Assembly (NCBI GenBank): GCA_043805595.1
Contig: JAZDHV010000027.1
Span: forward strand, 1 to 62,815
DNA length: 62,815 nt
DNA from: Candidatus Woesearchaeota archaeon
Lineage (GTDB): Archaea; Nanobdellota; Nanobdellia; Woesearchaeales; JAGVYU01
Direction: 5' to 3'
The notes beneath the pieces were generated by a model that was given only the letters and a program-made list of their open reading frames with translations, was not told the DNA's origin and did no database searches. Made by a program: the position numbers and the translations under genes. How positions within the stretch are numbered: position 1 is the first letter of the stretch; each line of letters begins with the position of its first letter. Positions 683 through 60,353 of this stretch are shown here, piece after piece.

Positions 683-845
683 TATGTCAGAAATATACCA
701 CTGGTCTACATGATCAGTGGACAATAGTCCACAATCCATTTTTGGAAGGGGGTATATTTCTGAGCATGCTCAAAGTCGGCAGGGTGGGCGAAGCGAACAT
801 ACCACCAGTCAATTGACTAGTGGTCCCTGCCGACTTTGACAAAAA
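683..845 (+). repeat. Hairpin-rich repeat element, family 1, copy A
   Basis: About nine in ten positions match 44722-44883 by eye. Long-range stem CAGAAATATACC/GGTATATTTCTG. Hairpins CCACTG..CAGTGG and CCACCAGTC..GACTAGTGG, nested in GTCGGCAGGG/CCCTGCCGAC. The reading frames through the two copies are not conserved. Confidence 0.8.
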
Positions 846-3010: not shown

Positions 3011-3126
3011 TATTGAAGATTACTGAAAATTTTTTAAATAAATTATTGTTTAAATTATAATTTACAATTAATTCATTTCTAAAAAGCAAAAAAAATTATA
3101 TCTATCGTGATTATTACGTTAAAACT

Positions 3127-3160
3127 CGAAAAAACATTTTTTTGGCGGTAAACTATATAT
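3127..3160 (+). promoter_or_regulatory. conserved upstream module (A6-CA-T7 + GGTAAAC + TATA), copy 1 of 3
   Basis: CGAAAAAACATTTTTTTGGCGGTAAACTATATATA. Near-identical modules at 7495-7530 and 44911-44947. Lies about 90 nt upstream of the ATG at 3249. Confidence 0.4.
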
Positions 3161-4332: not shown

Positions 4333-6075
4333 TTGTCAGAAAAAATTATTAATAGGAGAACAATATTAAAAGCTGCATCTGCTGGTGTTTCTGTAGGTAT
4401 ATTAGGATGCCCAATGAATGGTCAGCCTCCACCACCTCCTCCACCACCTCCACTTCCTGGAGCATTTGACATTGGAGCAATTGTCGGCAATTGGACAGAA
4501 GGGGATTATCCTGTCAATACCAATTGGCAAAAACAAACATTCTTTGATTCACAGGGTATTGCCAGAGCTGATATAACAGATACTTTTCCTCAGACAGGAG
4601 CAGGATCATTAGAGTTGGAACTTGATATACGAGGCCAGACCCAGACCAATAGGAATGGAGAAGTGTTTGTTGATCTTAGATATATGCCTGACCATGATGC
4701 AAGAACTCCAGTAATAATACAAAGATATCCAGATGGAAAACCTATTGGTGTAGATCTCTCAAATAAATATCTTTATGCCTGGGTCTTCTGCCCATTAGGT
4801 ACTGCAGGGAGCCGAAGTGCTCCAAATGGAGTGCAGATATTCATGAAAAGTGTCAGCCTAGTCAATGACCAGGAAGTCTGGAGAAGCTATTATGGAAATT
4901 GGCAGAATATCTGGATAGGCTCAAGAGATTCTGGAGCACACCCAGATCTGGGAAATGTCATAGCTGGATTATGGAGCCCTATCATTGTTCATGTCCCCTA
5001 CTCAACCCAATCAGGATTAAGCTGGACTCCGACTTTTGGAGATGTTGAAGCTGGTTTTGTTCCTGAAAGTGTCGCTTTGCTTGGAATAAAATACGGGCTT
5101 AATGATAATTCACTTGGAAATGTAAGCTCAAGAATCTTTGTTGATAATTTTGGCTGGTCTGATTTAGATAATGATGAAGATGTTGCATTCAGATTTGATC
5201 AGACAAACAATCCAATAACTGACTTAAGATACAGTGGATTTAATGCAGGATCAATACTGCAGACAGAATATATGGATACTCTCACTTCAACAAGCATCCA
5301 CCCTGTTGCAAGAAAAACCCACTCAGATGAGGAAATTATTGCATTAATAGATGAAATGAAAGCAAATGATATGACTGTCTCATTAAAGCCACATGTTGAT
5401 ATATCAACAGATGAATGGAGAGGGCTCATACATTTCAATAATGAGGCAGATAAAGCAGCATGGTTCAATGCATACACTGATTTCATAACTCATTATGCTG
5501 CTTTGGCTGAAGCAAATGGTGTTGAAATGCTTGTAATGGGAACTGAATTCCAGAGCATTGATGGAAATGAAAACAAACAATATTGGGGGCATGTTGTTGA
5601 TGCTGTCAGGAATGTATTTTTTGGAACATTGACTTATGCCGCAAATTGGGACAGCTATTGGCAGACTTGCTTATGGGATTTTGATGGCATTGATGCTGTT
5701 GGGATTGACGCTTATTTTCCATTAAGCTCAAACAGGGATCCTTCACTGCAAGAACTAGTGAATGGATGGAGTCCGCATGTTGCTGCACTTGAAACCTGGC
5801 AAGCAAATATAGGCAAACCAATAATATTTACAGAATTAGGGTATAGGTCAGTTGATTATGCTGCAAGAGAACCTTGGGAATATCAGGAGGACAGGCCTGT
5901 GAATCTTGAATTGCAGAAAAGATGCTATCAAGCTGTATATGATGTCTTTGGTGGGAAGGATTGGTTTGATGGATTCTATGTCTGGAATGTATCTCCGAGA
6001 AAAGATGACGGAGGACCATTCAATAAAGACTTCACACCTTACCATAAACCTGCACAGGGCGCATTTATTACTTGA
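4333..6075 (+). CDS. secreted TIM-barrel glycoside-hydrolase-like protein (clan GH-A type) with a Tat signal and lipobox-like Cys
   Basis: NRRTILKAA...GILGC followed by a poly-Pro linker. The C-terminal region has MGTEF and FTELGY, the typical acid/base and nucleophile Glu contexts. GGAGGTG lies 4 nt before TTG 4333. The longest ORF starts at ATG 4318. Confidence 0.7.
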   Translation: MSEKIINRRTILKAASAGVSVGILGCPMNGQPPPPPPPPPLPGAFDIGAIVGNWTEGDYPVNTNWQKQTFFDSQGIARADITDTFPQTGAGSLELELDIRGQTQTNRNGEVFVDLRYMPDHDARTPVIIQRYPDGKPIGVDLSNKYLYAWVFCPLGTAGSRSAPNGVQIFMKSVSLVNDQEVWRSYYGNWQNIWIGSRDSGAHPDLGNVIAGLWSPIIVHVPYSTQSGLSWTPTFGDVEAGFVPESVALLGIKYGLNDNSLGNVSSRIFVDNFGWSDLDNDEDVAFRFDQTNNPITDLRYSGFNAGSILQTEYMDTLTSTSIHPVARKTHSDEEIIALIDEMKANDMTVSLKPHVDISTDEWRGLIHFNNEADKAAWFNAYTDFITHYAALAEANGVEMLVMGTEFQSIDGNENKQYWGHVVDAVRNVFFGTLTYAANWDSYWQTCLWDFDGIDAVGIDAYFPLSSNRDPSLQELVNGWSPHVAALETWQANIGKPIIFTELGYRSVDYAAREPWEYQEDRPVNLELQKRCYQAVYDVFGGKDWFDGFYVWNVSPRKDDGGPFNKDFTPYHKPAQGAFIT

Positions 6076-7408: not shown

Positions 7409-7494
7409 TTTTAATCTGGCATCTGGAGAAAAATATTGGTTTATAAACTTTTTTGTTATTATTACGGAAGATTGCGAATAACTAGAAAACCACA

Positions 7495-7530
7495 CGAAAA
7501 AACATTTTTTTGTAGTAAACATATTTAAAT
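7495..7530 (+). promoter_or_regulatory. conserved upstream module, copy 2 of 3
   Basis: CGAAAAAACATTTTTTTGTAGTAAACATATTTAAAT, about 60 nt upstream of the PFK-family gene. Confidence 0.4.
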
Positions 7531-11942: not shown

Positions 11943-12150
11943 CTAAAGAACCACCAGTCATAGACTGGTGGGATTCATCAATTCAACATCCACTACATCT
12001 ACGGACTGGTGGTTCTTAGTGCTCAGAAATTTTAATAAAATTTCTGGCATGCCAAAAATGCTCTGCATTTTTGAGCATTTTTCTGATTCCAATATTGGGA
12101 ATGGCTTTCGGCCACCAGTTAAAAACTGGTGGAAAATTTCTGACATTTTA
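11943..12150 (-). repeat. Hairpin-rich repeat element, family 2, copy C
   Basis: Shares both ends with copies D and E: GAACCACCAGTCATAGACTGGTGGGATTCA... and ...ACTGGTGGAAAATTTCTGACATTTTA. The central part differs. Confidence 0.8.
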
Positions 12151-12331
12151 ATTTCAAGAAAACATAATAGTATAGGTCCTTAAAAACAGTATGCCAAAAT
12201 AAACCGAAAAAGATTGTTAGAAAGCGAAATGGTTTCGATCCTGATAAAGGATTTTTGATATACACTTAAATAACTGAAAAAAATTCAGAATTGATAAAAT
12301 ATTTATGCCAAAATATGCTTATTGACTATGC

Positions 12332-13990
12332 TTATTGACTAATATTTTGCCTATTATGCCTCTTTCTAGCAACTCTTTCAAAAAAATCGCCAACCATTCT
12401 TAATGATGGTATGTGATAAAATAAGCTTGCAGGAAATCCAAACTCTCTCAATACCCAATCTTCAAAAACAAGGCCGCCTAATCTCTGGCCACTTGACATC
12501 TTAAGAGCAGCATATCCTTTTGATCTCCAATTCAGACCTTTAGAACCTCCATTCATCAGAAGAGTTCCAAATCCACCAATTATATTAGCCTGATTAAGCC
12601 ATGGTCTTATTTCCCTATAAACCTCTTCTAGAGTCCCATCAGAAACTAATTCATCCAATTCTACCATTGTCTTAAAAATCTTGCCAAGTTCAGATCTTTC
12701 TGAATCTGACATATAATTCAATCTCTTACTTTTTAATGCAGAAGCAATAGGATGAGCACTATCAGGATTAACATATGATTCAGGATTGATTTCAACTAAT
12801 CTCATCAAGTTTGGACCTAGTATAGCACAACTGTTCTCGATTGATCTTGAGGGATCATAACCAGTTGGATTCCAAGCATAATCTGCGCATGTCAAGCCTG
12901 ATATCAATGAAGCATAAGGAATCTCCATAAAATTGAATACAATACCTCTTAAATGAGATGGCAAATCCTTATCAAGTCCAATCAGAGGCCCGACTGTAAC
13001 CCTTCTCTTCTTATCCATCTCATCAACAACTGGAAAATTGTGGCCAAGAAGAGGATACCTCCTTATTAGTTTAGCAAATGCATCTGCATCCTGAACTGTG
13101 ACTGTCTCACTTCTGATCTTTGGACCTGTCCAACCAACAACAATCTCAGAAATAAGATTCTCCCGAATAGCCTGAAGATAAGGAGAGTCTTTTATTCCAT
13201 GATATTGGACAGGATTGAATGCCAAAGAATAAGGATTTAGACCACTTTCACTAAAAAACCTGTTTAAAAAATTGATCTGCCTTAAAGCTGCTTTTTGTTT
13301 TCTTTCTTTTTTGCCGGAATAATCGTCAACATCATCAAATGCAATGATAATATCATCAACACCAATTTCCAATAAATCCCCGGACCTTTTTAATAATGTT
13401 TGATAATCTTTATCTAAACCAAGATCAATTCCAATTGGTAGGAATTCAAATGCAAGCCTAACCCTTTGATTATGGCAATGATTAACAAAATCCTGAAGAT
13501 GCTTAAGATATCTATCTGAAAAAGGATCTCTCCAATTCACTTTCTGGCTTATGTCACATGGTGCCAATACAAATTGATTGAATCCATATTGTGCACAAAA
13601 ACCCACAATATCAGTCCTTGCCTTCCAAGTCCAAGGCACGCCATAAGCTTTTTCCATAACACCCCTCAAAGAGAATGCTGGCCTGTCAACAATCAATAGA
13701 TCAGGAACTTGATTACCCCTATTCCTCATGATTCTTCTTGCAGTATTATTTCCATAAAATTTACCATGCTCAGAACTTGAATACACTAAAACCATGTCAC
13801 CTTTAGTCCTGATAACATAACCTTGAGAAACAAAATTTGGAGAATCAAATGTGCCTGTATGATCTTGAATCTCTGTTCCAGTCAGAACATCAGCAATATC
13901 TCGGGGGTTTCCTATCCCTCTGCACTGATATTGCACATCAGGATTTTCCCTGCAATAAAGCGGTCTTGGCAATAAAGTTTCTGCTATCAT
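12332..13990 (-). CDS. GH84-like beta-N-acetylglucosaminidase (O-GlcNAcase family)
   Basis: FSLRGVMEKAYGVPWTW, FVLAPCD and the catalytic-type IIIAFDDVDD match GH84 signatures (RG..EGFYG.PW, YAPKDD, FDDI). Confidence 0.75.
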   Translation of the reverse strand: MIAETLLPRPLYCRENPDVQYQCRGIGNPRDIADVLTGTEIQDHTGTFDSPNFVSQGYVIRTKGDMVLVYSSSEHGKFYGNNTARRIMRNRGNQVPDLLIVDRPAFSLRGVMEKAYGVPWTWKARTDIVGFCAQYGFNQFVLAPCDISQKVNWRDPFSDRYLKHLQDFVNHCHNQRVRLAFEFLPIGIDLGLDKDYQTLLKRSGDLLEIGVDDIIIAFDDVDDYSGKKERKQKAALRQINFLNRFFSESGLNPYSLAFNPVQYHGIKDSPYLQAIRENLISEIVVGWTGPKIRSETVTVQDADAFAKLIRRYPLLGHNFPVVDEMDKKRRVTVGPLIGLDKDLPSHLRGIVFNFMEIPYASLISGLTCADYAWNPTGYDPSRSIENSCAILGPNLMRLVEINPESYVNPDSAHPIASALKSKRLNYMSDSERSELGKIFKTMVELDELVSDGTLEEVYREIRPWLNQANIIGGFGTLLMNGGSKGLNWRSKGYAALKMSSGQRLGGLVFEDWVLREFGFPASLFYHIPSLRMVGDFFERVARKRHNRQNISQ

Positions 13991-14105
13991 AATATTTATT
14001 CCAATATGGTTTATATGTCAAGAACACACAAGTTTTTATAAATTTATATATTCTTAACTTTAGTATAGAAAAGATTTTAAACTAATTCCTACATTTTCAT
14101 AAATT

Positions 14106-14759: not shown

Positions 14760-14848
14760 TTGAAGAAAAGACATAAGAAATATAAGATAGAAAATTAGAA
14801 AGAAAACCTCAGTTCCAATAAAAAATCCACACCACATTAGGCTGCAGA

Positions 14849-14962
14849 GCATGAATCCAATTTAAGCAATCAAAGAAGCGATTAAAGCATGAAGCCATTT
14901 TGAGCAATCAAAGAAGAGATCAAAGAATAAATCCAATTTAAGCAATCAATGAACTGATCAAA
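14849..14962. repeat. 3 x 38-nt tandem repeat
   Basis: Units GCATGAATCCAATTTAAGCAATCAAAGAAGCGATTAAA, GCATGAAGCCATTTTGAGCAATCAAAGAAGAGATCAAA and GAATAAATCCAATTTAAGCAATCAATGAACTGATCAAA. The last unit overlaps the stop of the DUF1003 gene. Confidence 0.85.
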
Positions 14963-15530
14963 GATTCTTAAGAATAATATTCAGATTTGAATCATTATGC
15001 CTTGCCTTCTTGATCCTATCCTTATGCACATGATGAATCTCATAAATCATCCTTTTCAATAATTTCACTTCCTGCTGCATCTGCTGGATCTCCCTCTCAG
15101 CTTTCCTGTTCACCTGATAATCATAGCTTGCATTTATCCTGTCCCTTTCTGCAGCCCTATTCTGGCTCATCAAGATTACAGGAGCCTGCATGCCTGCCAA
15201 GACAGAAAGAATAAGGTTCAGCAGTATGAATGGATAGATATCCCACCTATAACTGACCATCAAGATATTTAAGATTATCCAGACAATCATAAAAAGGATC
15301 ATAAAAATAATGAAAACCCAGCTGCCTGCCCATTTAGCAATAAAATCTGCAGCCTTTTGACCAAGAGTTAGTTTTTGGCCTAAAGTAGGATGATTAGAAT
15401 GTTTGTGAATAATGCTTTTATTAACATAGTTATGATTATTTTTTATTGTCTTATGGTTTGTACCTCTTTTCTGAATATTAATATTTTCAATTCTATTCCT
15501 TATTGAAGGTTTAGCACTTTTCCTTACCAT
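14958..15530 (-). CDS. DUF1003-family membrane protein
   Basis: Two TM helices, then SQNRAAERDRINASYDYQVNRKAEREI, the characteristic DUF1003 core. Confidence 0.8.
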   Translation of the reverse strand: MVRKSAKPSIRNRIENINIQKRGTNHKTIKNNHNYVNKSIIHKHSNHPTLGQKLTLGQKAADFIAKWAGSWVFIIFMILFMIVWIILNILMVSYRWDIYPFILLNLILSVLAGMQAPVILMSQNRAAERDRINASYDYQVNRKAEREIQQMQQEVKLLKRMIYEIHHVHKDRIKKARHNDSNLNIILKNL

Positions 15531-20435: not shown

Positions 20436-20656
20436 CTAAAGAACCACCAGTCATAGACTGGTGGGATTCAATAAATCCGCAACTTCCTTATGATAGGACT
20501 GGTGGGATTTACTAAATCCGCAATTACCTTATGATAAGACTGGTGGTTCTTAGTGCTCAGGAATTTTTCACTCCTATAAGCTAAATCAATCAAAGATTGT
20601 CACCAGTCAGAGATTGGTGGAAAATTCCTGACATTTTATACAATTCTGACATTTTA
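20436..20656 (-). repeat. Hairpin-rich repeat element, family 2, copy D (with an internal module duplication of about 41 nt)
   Basis: Collinear with copy E (reverse complement) apart from a duplicated module ACTGGTGGGATT.A.TAAATCCGCAA.T.CCTTATGATA.G. The tail TTCTGACATTTTA occurs twice. Confidence 0.8.
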
Positions 20657-29201: not shown

Positions 29202-29254
29202 TATTTATTTATTCTATATTTAAAGGGAAATATTATAAGATTAGTATAATAACA

Positions 29255-29321
29255 AAAAGCAAACTCACTATCGTTCGTAACTTTTGGACAAAAACCAAAA
29301 GCAAACTCACTATCATTCGTA
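29255..29321 (+). repeat. 25-nt direct repeat x2 (period 42)
   Basis: AAAAGCAAACTCACTATCGTTCGTA and AAAAGCAAACTCACTATCATTCGTA, followed by the palindrome GGTTACGGTT-AAAAAACCGTAACC. Confidence 0.8.
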
Positions 29322-44721: not shown

Positions 44722-44883
44722 ATATGTCAGAAATATACCACTGGACTGCATGATCAGTGGACAATATTCCACAATCCATTTTTGGAAGGTGGTATATTTC
44801 TGAGCATGCTCAAAGTCGGCAGGGTGAGCAGAGCGAACATGCCAACAGTCTATGACTGGTGGTCCCTGCCGACCTTGACAAAA
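44722..44883 (+). repeat. Hairpin-rich repeat element, family 1, copy B
   Basis: See copy A. Differences from copy A fall mostly in hairpin loops (GTCTACATGAT versus GACTGCATGAT). Confidence 0.8.
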
Positions 44884-44910
44884 CTAGATTCAGCTAAAAT
44901 TACGAAAAAT

Positions 44911-44947
44911 CTGAAAAAAACATTTTTTGGTAGGTAAGGTTTTTAAG
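44911..44947 (+). promoter_or_regulatory. conserved upstream module, copy 3 of 3
   Basis: TGAAAAAAACATTTTTTGGTAGGTAAGGTTTTTAAG, about 120 nt upstream of the aIF-1A gene. Confidence 0.35.
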
Positions 44948-55834: not shown

Positions 55835-56014
55835 TAAAATGTCAGAATTATATAAAATGTCAGGAATTTTCCACCAATCTCTGACTGGTGACAATCTTTG
55901 ATTGATTTAGCTTTCAGGAGTGAAAAATTCCTGAGCACTAAGAACCACCAGTCCTATCATAATGTAATTGCGGATTTAATGAATCCCACCAGTCCATGAC
56001 TGGTGGTTCTTTAG
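55835..56014 (+). repeat. Hairpin-rich repeat element, family 2, copy E
   Basis: Reverse complement is collinear with copy D, minus one internal module. Confidence 0.8.
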
Positions 56015-57658: not shown

Positions 57659-58041
57659 AGCTAACCAAACAATTCCTATAGGATCTGCGATCAAGAATAC
57701 CCGTTGATCCTGCGGGAGATTGCTGCTATTTGAGTTCGACTAAGCCATGCAAGTCAGAGCGAAAGCTCGGCGAAATGCTCAGTAACACGTCGATAATCTG
57801 CCCTTAGGTCAGGGATAACCTCGGGAAACTGTGATTAAAACCTGATTGGGTAACATATCTGGAATGATTGTTACTTTAAAAGTAATGCCTAAGGATGAGT
57901 CGGCGGCGGATTAGGTCGTTGGTGAGGTAAAGTATACCAAACATTAGTTTGGTTTTTACATGCTCACCAAGCCAAAGATCCGTAGGGGCCTTGAGAGAGG
58001 GAGCCTCGAGAAGGGCACTGAGACACTGGCCCTAGCCCTAA

Positions 58042-58072
<31 letters not shown>

Positions 58073-58353
58073 CAGGAAACTGTGATAAGGGAACTCTAAG
58101 TGCTTGTACATTGTACAGGCTTTTGCCAAATGTAAATAATTTGGCGAATAAGTGGTGGGTAAGACGGGTGCCAGCCGCCGCGGTAACACCTGCGCCACAA
58201 GTGGCAATCACAATTATTGGGCCTAAAGCGTCCGTAGCTGGTTTAGTAAATTTCTTGTGAAAATGTTAAGCTTAACTTAACAAGTTGCAGGAAACACTGC
58301 TAAACTCGGAACCGGTAGGGGTCAGAAGTATGTGAGGGGTAACGGTAAAATAT

Positions 58354-58400
58354 TCTCACTACGTTCGAAAATGTTAAGAACGGAGTGGTCTTTACATTGT
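58354..58400 (+). other. putative insertion or intron of about 47 nt in 16S
   Basis: Interrupts the conserved GGTAAAAT...ATAATCC..GAC.ACC.GTGGCGAAGGCG region. Boundaries are ambiguous by a few nt. Confidence 0.45.
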
Positions 58401-58496
58401 TATAATCCCTCATAGACTACCTGTGGCGAAGGCGTCTGACTAGGACGGATTCGACAGTGAGGGACGAAAGCCAGGGGAGCGAACCGGATTAGATAC

Positions 58497-58599
58497 GGGA
58501 GATTTTGAGATTTCTGGAATTAACTCGGAAAGATTCGTTATACTACTAAGTACGAGTTGATGAAATTAATCTAAACAATCATTATCTTCTCGCTAATGA
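58497..58599 (+). other. putative 103-nt intron in 16S
   Basis: Splits the universally conserved GGATTAGATAC|CCGAGTAGTCC block. Confidence 0.65.
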
Positions 58600-58702
58600 C
58601 CCGAGTAGTCCTGGCTGTAAACGCTGCGAGCAAGGTGTTGCATATTCTTCGTGAATGTGCAGTATCGAAGAGAAGTCGTTAAGCTCGCCGCCTGGGAAGT
58701 AT

Positions 58703-58754
<52 letters not shown>

Positions 58755-59173
58755 CGGCGTGCGGTTTAATCTAATTCAACGCAGAGAATCTCACCAGAGG
58801 CGACGGCAGGATGAAGGTCAGATTGAATGTTTTACCTAACGAGCCGAGAGGTAGTGCATGGCCGCCGTCAGCTCGTGCCGTAAGGTGTCCAGTTAAGTCT
58901 GGTAACGAGCGAGACCTGTATCTATAATTGCTAACGACTCATTTGAGGATTGAGTACATTATAGGGACTGCCTTGGAAACAAGGAGGAAGGCGCAGGCAA
59001 CGGTAGGTCTGTATGCTCCGAATCTTCTGGGCAACACGCGCGCAACAATGGTAAGGACACTGGGATGCTACTCTGAAAAGAGAAGCCAAACTCGAAACCT
59101 TATCCAAGTCCAGATCGAGGACTGTAACTCGTCCTCGTGACGATGGAATCCCTAGTAATCGTGTTTCAACATA

Positions 59174-59221
<48 letters not shown>

Positions 59222-59296
59222 ACCGAGCAGGGTTTAGATGAGTATCAGCCTATTAGCTGGTCCGAATCTAAGCTCAGTGAGGTGGGTTAAGTCGTC

Positions 59297-59339
<43 letters not shown>

Positions 59340-59428
59340 TATTTTTTTTTCGAAAGAAAAAAAGTTAAGAAATCTCATTGATTTCTGTGAAATTTTGTGC
59401 AAATAAACACATTTTGGAATTAGGTTAA

Positions 59429-59445
59429 ATTTCTACTCTTAATTC
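59429..59445 (+). other. 3' strand of the 16S processing stem
   Basis: Complementary to 57642-57658. Confidence 0.7.
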
Positions 59446-59461
59446 TTCATAATCATATTTT

Positions 59462-59608
59462 GGGCCTGTAGCTCAGTCCGGTAGAGCATCGCCCTTGCAA
59501 GGAAAAGATCGGCCCTTTGTCGTTTCATTCCTAAGTGAGGCGGGGGTCTCGGGTTCGAAACCTGAGCTCACCAAAATGAGCTTTAGGACGAAAGTCCCGA
59601 CGGGTCCA
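59462..59608 (+). tRNA. tRNA-Ala(UGC) in the rRNA spacer, two introns (37/38 region and 59/60)
   Basis: Acceptor GGGCCTG/CGGGTCC with G3-U70. Loop CTTGCA[intron]A. T-arm TCGGG-TTCGAA[intron]T-CCCGA. Confidence 0.85.
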
Positions 59609-60353
59609 TAATTTTTATTGAGATCACAGTGGAACTGAAATAATTAATAGGTTCATTGAAAAATTATGGACCTAAGAAAATTCATGAAATGAATTTTCTG
59701 TCGGTCCCTAACAACCTAGAAAATATTGTTTGACAATTTTTTTGTTGGTCCATGTGTTTAATTATAAATTAAATATCACATAAATCACACTCATTTAATC
59801 GACAAGAATCATTAAGTAAGACTTTTTGGTTCTTTGGTGAAGACAGATATTCCCGTATCATGTTAATGAAGCCAATCATAGGCGATTGTTGAAATAGACG
59901 TTATTAGGTGGATGACTTGGCTCTATTGCTGATGAAGGATGTGACAAGCTACATTATGCTTTGGCGAGGCGCAAGTTGCCATTGAACCAAAGATTTCCGA
60001 ATGAGACTTCTCTTCAGATCCGTAAGGATGGGGAACGCAGTGAATTGAAACGTCTTAGTAACTGCAGGAAAAGAAATCAATTGAGATGTTGTTAGTAGGA
60101 GCGACCGAAAACAACGAAAGGCAAACTGAATCCTTCATAGAAATATGAAGGAGATGTGGTGTTTTAAGACCTTTTTTTAATCTTCATTAAGCGATTGGAA
60201 CTATCCTGGAATGGTAGGCCTTAGAGGGTGATAGCCCCTTACAAGTAGCTTAGAAAGATGTAAAGGTATCTTGAGTACTGTTCATTGGATATTGAGCAGG
60301 AATTTGGGAGGCATTAACTTCCAACCTTAAATACACATAGAGTCCGATAGATT

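Follow-up and report, generated by a model that had tools for sequence, protein, structure and literature searches.

The PATEs of Haloquadratum walsbyi and other haloarchaea derive from IS200/IS605 elements, have no inverted terminal repeats, carry like palindromes near their termini and cause no target duplication (PMC3119063). They follow a 5′ targeting sequence of 4-5 nt, their copies vary between strains, and core deletions shorten them to ~52 bp, within a range of 50-60 bp, while they are still mobile; also, small repeats insert into PATE palindromes and into IS605-type transposons (PMC3119063). In IS608, the cleavage or target site is paired with bases lying 5′ of the hairpin foot, insertion takes place 3′ of the target with nothing gained or lost, and a change of the guide retargets insertion (PMC3201880). 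A census of MITEs found them at very high density in one genome of the Woesearchaeota but gave no description of the elements (PMC11602168).

Here we analyzed a hairpin-rich repeat in a contig of a Woesearchaeota archaeon, which was used as a whole (62,815 nt; the window). With a probability of about 0.7, the repeats are a transposase-less mobile element of the IS200/IS605 type, of the PATE kind, which belongs to a DPANN-wide superfamily and is moved by a putative transposase acting in trans; because ~0.6 Mb of fetched DPANN DNA yielded no autonomous element sharing these ends, the membership in IS200/IS605 rests on behaviour and not on a common transposase.

The window has a G+C content of ~35% and contains archaeal 16S and 23S rRNA genes, which gave the sole Rfam matches at the gathering threshold, while a tRNA scan of the window found none. 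The 16S rRNA gene (57697-59337) comprises 1641 nt compared to 1478 model positions, with insertions of ~30 and ~48 nt in hairpin loops, and the 16S-23S spacer (59338-59883) is without tRNA. Genes near the repeats that were tested with Pfam are ordinary (RNA polymerase, ribosomal proteins, eIF-1A, DEAD-box helicase, proteases) or had no match. The nearest public relative is Woesearchaeota GCA_043810355.1 (JBDROB01), with 87-92% DNA identity across syntenic stretches and 89% protein identity; its locus L083 is syntenic with window positions ~8.3-20.6 kb. A search of the window against sequencing runs gave no match, and a relative's copy matched DNA runs only. An exact-protein look-up of the window's S8e found no record, and homologues of a second window gene, used to look for the sites of copies E and F1b, were at best 63% identical, with no close relative among them.

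All three copies of the repeat listed in the sequence-only reading (family 2; copies C, D and E) were confirmed, as were the sequences given there for the ends and the interior. Their exact ends were revised by means of an empty orthologous site, since the TAAAA before TGTCAG, formerly counted in, is target DNA. Two copies of a sister family are also present, and a profile search of the window found no more beyond these five (Table 1). The hairpin arm CCACCAGT occurs 15 times in the window compared to 0.92 expected, and none of 100 shuffles reached 15. At the position of copy D, the relative's locus L083 has a sister-family copy in the same direction.

Table 1. Element copies and their parts in the window, and the tnpA pseudogene of the relative
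Feature	Position	Strand	Evidence or remark
Copy C, full element TGTCAG…TTCTTTAG, 203 nt	11943-12145	-	empty site in L083; nhmmer E = 1.8e-31
Copy C, target ATTAAAA, left flank only	12146-12152	-	present in L083 without the element
Copy C, left lead TGTCAGAAATTTT; last bases TTTT, proposed guide pairing with flank AAA	12133-12145	-	
Copy C, left subterminal hairpin H1 (CCACCAGT-ttttt-ACTGGTGG)	12112-12132	-	covariation, folding
Copy C, nested hairpin modules (the "unrelated centre")	12034-12087	-	same insert in L020 and L032
Copy C, stem P1 return strand and centre motif (AAAATTTCTGAGCA)	12020-12033	-	covariation
Copy C, right subterminal hairpin H2 (CCACCAGTC-tat-GACTGGTGG)	11951-11971	-	covariation, folding
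Copy C, right tail TTCTTTAG, 8 nt from hairpin foot to end	11943-11950	-	
Copy D, full element, with 41-nt tandem duplication at 20497-20537	20436-20633	-	
Copy D, leader, 18-nt TGTCAGAATTGTATAAAA, duplicated left-end fragment supplying the TAAAA target	20634-20651	-	common to copies D and E
Copy E, full element, 157 nt	55858-56014	+	between DEAD-box helicase stop and S8e gene start
Copy E, leader TGTCAGAATTATATAAAA	55840-55857	+	
Sister-family copy F1a; same architecture, guide …TATA, flank ATA	685-841	+	
Sister-family copy F1b; same architecture	44725-44880	+	
tnpA pseudogene	L059:1895-2566 (JBDROB010000066.1)	-	one in-frame TAA and three hairpin-module insertions

The element is mobile, and its limits can be read from the alignment of copy C with the relative. 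At this site, L083 is empty and reads …aaaatt-aaaaaa-tttatga, whereas the window reads …gaaatt-aaaa[TGTCAG…TTCTTTAG]aa-tttatga. Deleting TGTCAG…TTCTTTAG restores the L083 site exactly, the six A being split into 4 + 2 in the window, and no duplication is seen. Therefore, the insert is exactly TGTCAG…TTCTTTAG, and the A-rich bases before TGTCAG are target. Copy C provides the one clean empty site for a full-size copy. In the relative's locus L027, beside the orthologue of window 22402, a copy is present and the window has none. The flanks of 58 copies share no common repeat. Flank-versus-flank BLAST among the loci gave no further usable empty sites, and in runs X1-X4 no empty allele of L009 was found, only depth and repeat limits.

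All copies follow one plan. The 5′ end is a lead of 13 nt (TGTCAGRAATnnn), followed by the left hairpin H1 (CCACYRGT-loop-ACYRGTGG), a second small hairpin overlapping the 3′ arm of H1, and a variable stretch. Past the latter, the return strand of stem P1 is followed by CTGAGCAT|GCTCAAG; stem P2 encloses a variable stretch and the right hairpin H2, the sequence of which equals that of H1. The right tail is TTCTTGACA in most relatives and TTCTTTAG in family 2 of the window. The distance between cut and hairpin is 13 nt at the left end (cut 5′ of the hairpin) and 8-9 nt at the right end (cut 3′ of it). Elements range from 135 to 272 nt, which is too short for a transposase, and have no conserved ORF. 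In line with the sequence-only reading, which saw no ORF conserved across copies, the ORFs of 62 and 71 aa over copy C are not conserved.

Pairing in P1, H1, P2 and H2 is kept through two-sided changes across relatives. Thereby, the earlier claims of one palindromic hairpin at both ends (CCACCRGT…ACYGGTGG) and of long-range pairings were borne out, as both covary. Folding of the single-stranded DNA compared to shuffled sequences gave z = -4.6 for copy E and z = -8.5 for copy C. Among stem mismatches there were 7 G·U and 6 A·C, so neither strand is favoured. In copy C, the 3′ arm of H2 can alternatively pair with 12004-12019. The whole plan is pseudo-palindromic, its tips forming a short imperfect inverted repeat. 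The earlier statement that terminal inverted repeats are lacking is therefore roughly true: the short similarity of the ends derives from hairpins H1 and H2, without long inverted repeats, and in family 2 the right tip reads …TTCTTTAG; most relatives, however, read TGTCAGAA[ATTTT]CCACCAGT… / …ACYGGTGGTTCTTGACA, which is a short imperfect repeat.

Several kinds of variants were found, which point to changes that took place in the DNA itself. Truncated remnants occur, and at two sites of one contig there are 57-nt minis consisting of lead, one hairpin and tail only. Small hairpin-pair modules are nested in hairpin loops, at the centre of elements and in copy C. The centre of copy C, earlier described as unrelated to that of the other copies, consists of hairpin modules inserted into the element and of a spacer that has diverged; copy D has a tandem duplication of 41 nt. 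The nested insert of copy C runs on into 12020-12033: the second module hairpin spans 12020-12049, and its 3′ half is the P1 return strand. At L022:3392-3471, the part enclosed by stem P2, with H2 in it, runs in the opposite direction compared to sister copies, an arrangement which would be consistent with recombination between the stem arms.

For collection of further copies, the exact left-end 20-mer was scanned over one genome per species, so that the sample is biased to close relatives. The scan gave at least 72 loci, with about 60 true copies among the matches listed. Hosts, again among the matches listed, are nearly all Woesearchaeota, Nanoarchaeota, Aenigmatarchaeota or MAGs labelled 'uncultured Methanosarcinales'. 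Copies occupy unrelated intergenic sites in DPANN genomes and metagenomes, with several copies per genome and, in some genomes, more than 10 near-identical ones. In CAYNHV01, an identical 120-nt left part is present in 13 fetched loci, and 11 of 12 complete copies have 166 nt; in the runs holding CAYNHV01 (X1-X3), element depth is ~10-40x flank depth. The relative's contigs break off within copies. Many copies lie 20-90 nt from gene starts. Relative to the genes next to them, the copies are randomly oriented (14/13/13/9), and these genes include no recurrent protein family. A scan of viral contigs gave ten chance matches and no element. Divergent relatives at L065:3390-3450 and ~1230-1330 are built on another stem (…TGTCACGATTT…AAATCGTGAGCA), follow one another head to tail and show both junction types, GAGCA|TGCTC and GACA|TGTC; therefore, the superfamily is broader than the 20-mer used for collection.

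Insertion is target-specific on one side. In 58 copies, TGTCAG is preceded by T-N-A-W-A, with T at f-5 in 91% and A-W-A as the last three bases in 58/58, while the right flank of these copies is random. The second-last flank base matches the element base immediately 5′ of the left hairpin. This relation was tabulated over 47 distinct sites for p10-p13, the four bases with which the 13-nt lead ends at the hairpin foot. TATA goes with flank ATA (21/21) and TGTG with ACA (3/3), while AAA is the flank of TTTT (18/19), TATT (2/2) and CTTT (1/1). An outlier is the decayed copy L104, which has a lead …TATC with flank AAA. A metagenome scan for leads ending in G or C, run to test the predicted pairing of TGTG with ACA, found the TGTG type at four loci, all with the flank …TC(A/G)ACA, two of the four sharing an identical 8-nt flank. 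Two contigs each carry a TGTG copy with flank ACA and a TATA copy with flank ATA, the hairpins of which differ by one loop base. As the triplet is target DNA, shared descent cannot explain the covariation of flank and lead. The guide test comprises five haplotypes; p11 and p13 co-vary in the three main ones, and the register is fixed by the two rare haplotypes only. A 'parallel' register of the left-end pairing was rejected, as the TATA type does not fit. The same guide bases take part in stem P1, too. At the right end, ~2/3 of the copies agree with a register in which a CA end corresponds to ATG in front of the hairpin; ATT variants and the TTTAG/AATC type of the window do not fit that register, and a matching rule could not be demonstrated.

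From this we infer a single-strand chemistry and the kind of enzyme. A Y1 (HUH) transposase supplied in trans would bind both hairpins on one DNA strand and would cut this strand on the left between flank and TGTCAG and on the right after the tail. The cut strand would move as a circle and be reinserted 3′ of a T-N-A-W-A target, which would be read via base pairing with the lead bases beside the left hairpin, with no duplication resulting. For IS200/IS605 elements, a preference for the template of the lagging strand is known.

The absence of tnpA and tnpB from the window, noted before, was confirmed. A scan for Y1 transposase motifs covering all fetched DNA (~0.6 Mb of DPANN) found a single Y1 transposase, in locus L059 of the relative, which matches PF01797 with E = 1.4e-28 when read through. 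A family-2 copy abuts the truncated upstream region of this pseudogene. Alignment with an intact homologue gave module insertions of 55, 103 and 53 nt, each of which follows a pre-existing …AAA, …ATA or …GTA, starts at TG/T after …WA and shows no duplication. The hairpin modules around this tnpA had been considered as IS ends; this was rejected, as the alignment with the intact gene identifies them as insertions breaking it. The hairpin pairs of 53-56 nt consist of TG(C)TCAR-stem-loop-stem-YTGA(G)CA, twice, and have no CCACC hairpin; they seem to move without it.

The Y1 family of the L059 type has more than 560 DPANN relatives at 65-90% identity. Several members lie in one fixed context across samples, and a DNA methyltransferase often adjoins; in two contexts (L094-L101 and L107), an N6/N4 DNA methyltransferase follows tnpA. 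The tnpA unit starts with …AA^TGACATACTCCCAAAATAAAT (TGACAT…) followed by a hairpin, and its right hairpin (TGTCC…GGACA) covaries and lies within a C-terminal coding extension. Intact tnpA loci (L084, L092, L094, L095, L108) share a conserved structured leader of ~190 nt, in which the hairpin CCACCT…AGGTGG covers the ribosome-binding site. The similarity between tnpA contexts ends at the stop codon. A tnpA or tnpB locus flanked by the hairpins of the element was not found: beside the gene in these five loci, neither the left lead plus hairpin nor the right tail motif of the element occurs, and among the matches listed none of the 72 + 5 loci has a cargo-bearing copy. The left cut context of tnpA, A^TG, resembles that of the element while the hairpins differ, and therefore the tnpA family is a candidate partner only. 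In sequencing runs, the stretch of the L059 pseudogene shows weak co-occurrence, and X4 is rich in the tnpA family as well as in the element. A wider picture can be drawn tentatively and with considerable doubt: the hairpin pairs may constitute a class of ultra-small mobile elements in their own right, preferring IS200-type transposase genes and the loops of larger elements, and as a DPANN counterpart of the Haloquadratum SMR-A repeats may act as a natural transposon brake, while the larger elements would be driven by a single-copy host-resident Y1 transposase, with target choice diversifying by guide-base mutation.

Other repeats and remnants in the window are recorded here. A motif of ~39 nt centred on the small palindrome GAAAAAACATTTTTTKG occurs at 3113-3151, 7481-7519 and 44899-44937, one copy beginning 19 nt past the end of copy F1b; it is possibly a further small repeat, or a site resembling a terminator. 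Tandem arrays are found at 14845-14963 (three overlapping 43-nt copies at 38-nt spacing) and at 29236-29319 (two 42-nt units), both in or beside intergenic DNA. A beta-N-acetylglucosaminidase gene (12332-13990), absent from the same locus in L083, adjoins copy C. Upstream of this gene, at 14016-14027, there is a right-end-like remnant GTGTTCTTGACA, and L083 has at ~5145-5170 a left-end-like remnant GAAAATTTTCCATCCAG where the window has the gene; this arrangement hints that the gene may have been gained or lost between element copies.

The question whether another process could have spread the copies has to be weighed against these data. REP/BIME sequences (REPINs) are likewise high-copy intergenic doublets of inverted palindromes linked to a Y1 RAYT/TnpA-REP transposase, which can be single-copy (PMC3333891, PMC8266576). 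By analogy, a single-copy domesticated host Y1 transposase could spread and maintain the element, which may have a cellular function (transcript stability or genome structure, for example) and not be purely selfish. This fits the pseudo-palindromic, REPIN-like hairpin doublets, the conserved context of tnpA across many samples, the length of its products (184-208 aa compared to the 121-position Pfam Y1_Tnp profile) and the joint abundance in X4. However, intact tnpA genes have no flanking elements, tnpA of the relative is a pseudogene with hairpin modules inserted in it, the copies include decayed, truncated and inverted ones, and the element differs from REPINs by its larger size (150-200 nt), its target specificity with exact limits and the lack of a conserved GTAG/CGTC-type tag, and we regard this origin as improbable. 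It appears very unlikely that the element is moved by a different enzyme acting on single strands or at specific sites (an IS91/Helitron-like Y2 HUH protein, an IS607 serine recombinase or an unknown one). Such enzymes likewise work without duplication and on short targets, for the partner transposase there is a candidate only, and hairpin-pair modules without the CCACC hairpin also move. On the other hand, the element has hairpins at both ends and not at the 3′ end alone, pairing of flank and lead beside the hairpin foot is described for IS200/IS605, and no recombinase of these types recurs beside the copies.

Little credence can be given to an ordinary MITE, which would depend on a DDE transposase and its recognition of the short inverted ends TGTCA…TGACA. 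The imperfect inverted ends with TG…CA tips in most relatives and the MITE density of the census (PMC11602168) would agree with it, and the element resembles Correia and RUP MITEs in being small, non-coding, intergenic, multi-copy and hairpin-forming. In contrast to these, its target is one-sided and not duplicated (duplication absent at 4/4 resolved insertions), the flank covaries with an internal base, and family 2 of the window ends in …TTTAG, which is not the inverted repeat of the left tip. Scarcely credible as well is a family of structured small or cis-regulatory RNAs with the stems as RNA structure and the copies as gene duplications, which the sequence-only reading had considered equally fitting. 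Covarying stems, strongly non-random folding and the many copies 20-90 nt from gene starts speak for RNA. Against it, Rfam gave no match (nothing over elements at the gathering threshold in the window, and nothing at E <= 5 in four loci), upstream conservation is limited to target bases with no promoter, orientation is random, the counts of G·U and A·C favour no strand, and presence/absence, nesting, truncation, inversion, core deletion and modules inside a coding gene are found. The lack of resemblance to a known RNA family, stated earlier, held for Rfam 15 over the elements. The structured right end of an IS200/IS605-type element recalls the ωRNA of TnpB (PMC8612924), yet no tnpB recurs beside the copies. 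Inspection also excluded a bulge-helix-bulge intron, a kink-turn or C/D box, hammerhead, hairpin or other small ribozymes and origin-recognition boxes, the motifs of which do not fit. The non-autonomous IS200/IS605 element, named first in the sequence-only reading, is thus preferred on the basis of presence/absence between relatives without duplication, a target in one flank, like hairpins and the covariation of flank and lead; further copies and covariation, which that reading had proposed to look for, were both obtained.

As such an element, it shares with PATEs the near-terminal like palindromes, the 5′ target without duplication, presence/absence, core-deleted minis and smaller repeats that insert into its hairpins and into an IS200/IS605-type transposase gene. 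It differs in its DPANN host, sequence similarity not being claimed, and in that two long covarying stems, P1 and P2, enclose the hairpins, with invariant junction motifs and a pseudo-palindromic whole; moreover, haloarchaeal PATEs match annotated IS605-type elements, whereas no IS with the same ends was found for the DPANN element. With IS608 and ISDra2 it has in common subterminal hairpins, a left cut farther from its hairpin than the right one (13 and 8-9 nt, compared to 19 and 10 nt in IS608), insertion 3′ of the target without duplication, and a target determined by the bases that precede the left hairpin on its 5′ side (PMC3201880, PMC5934647). Unlike these, it carries neither tnpA nor tnpB, and only 2-3 flank bases demonstrably pair. 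Unlike in IS608, the guide bases are also part of stem P1, and P1, P2 and the junction motifs (CTGAGCAT/GCTCAAG) are without counterpart.

The element is new for DPANN archaea as one of the PATE kind and shows clearly, in a natural setting, a target choice encoded by the guide. A repeat that is common in DPANN genomes, breaks assemblies and could be mis-annotated as small ORFs or sRNA genes now has a name and exact limits. To our knowledge, element-encoded target choice has hitherto been shown mainly by engineered IS608; here, sister subfamilies within one genome, one guide base apart, land by different triplets and thus represent natural element-encoded target choice. The results also point to a DPANN Y1 transposase family as the enzyme candidate. 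Finally, the target TTNAWA resembles the archaeal TATA box, and as many copies lie 20-90 nt from start codons, promoters and leaders of very small genomes may be remodelled by these insertions.
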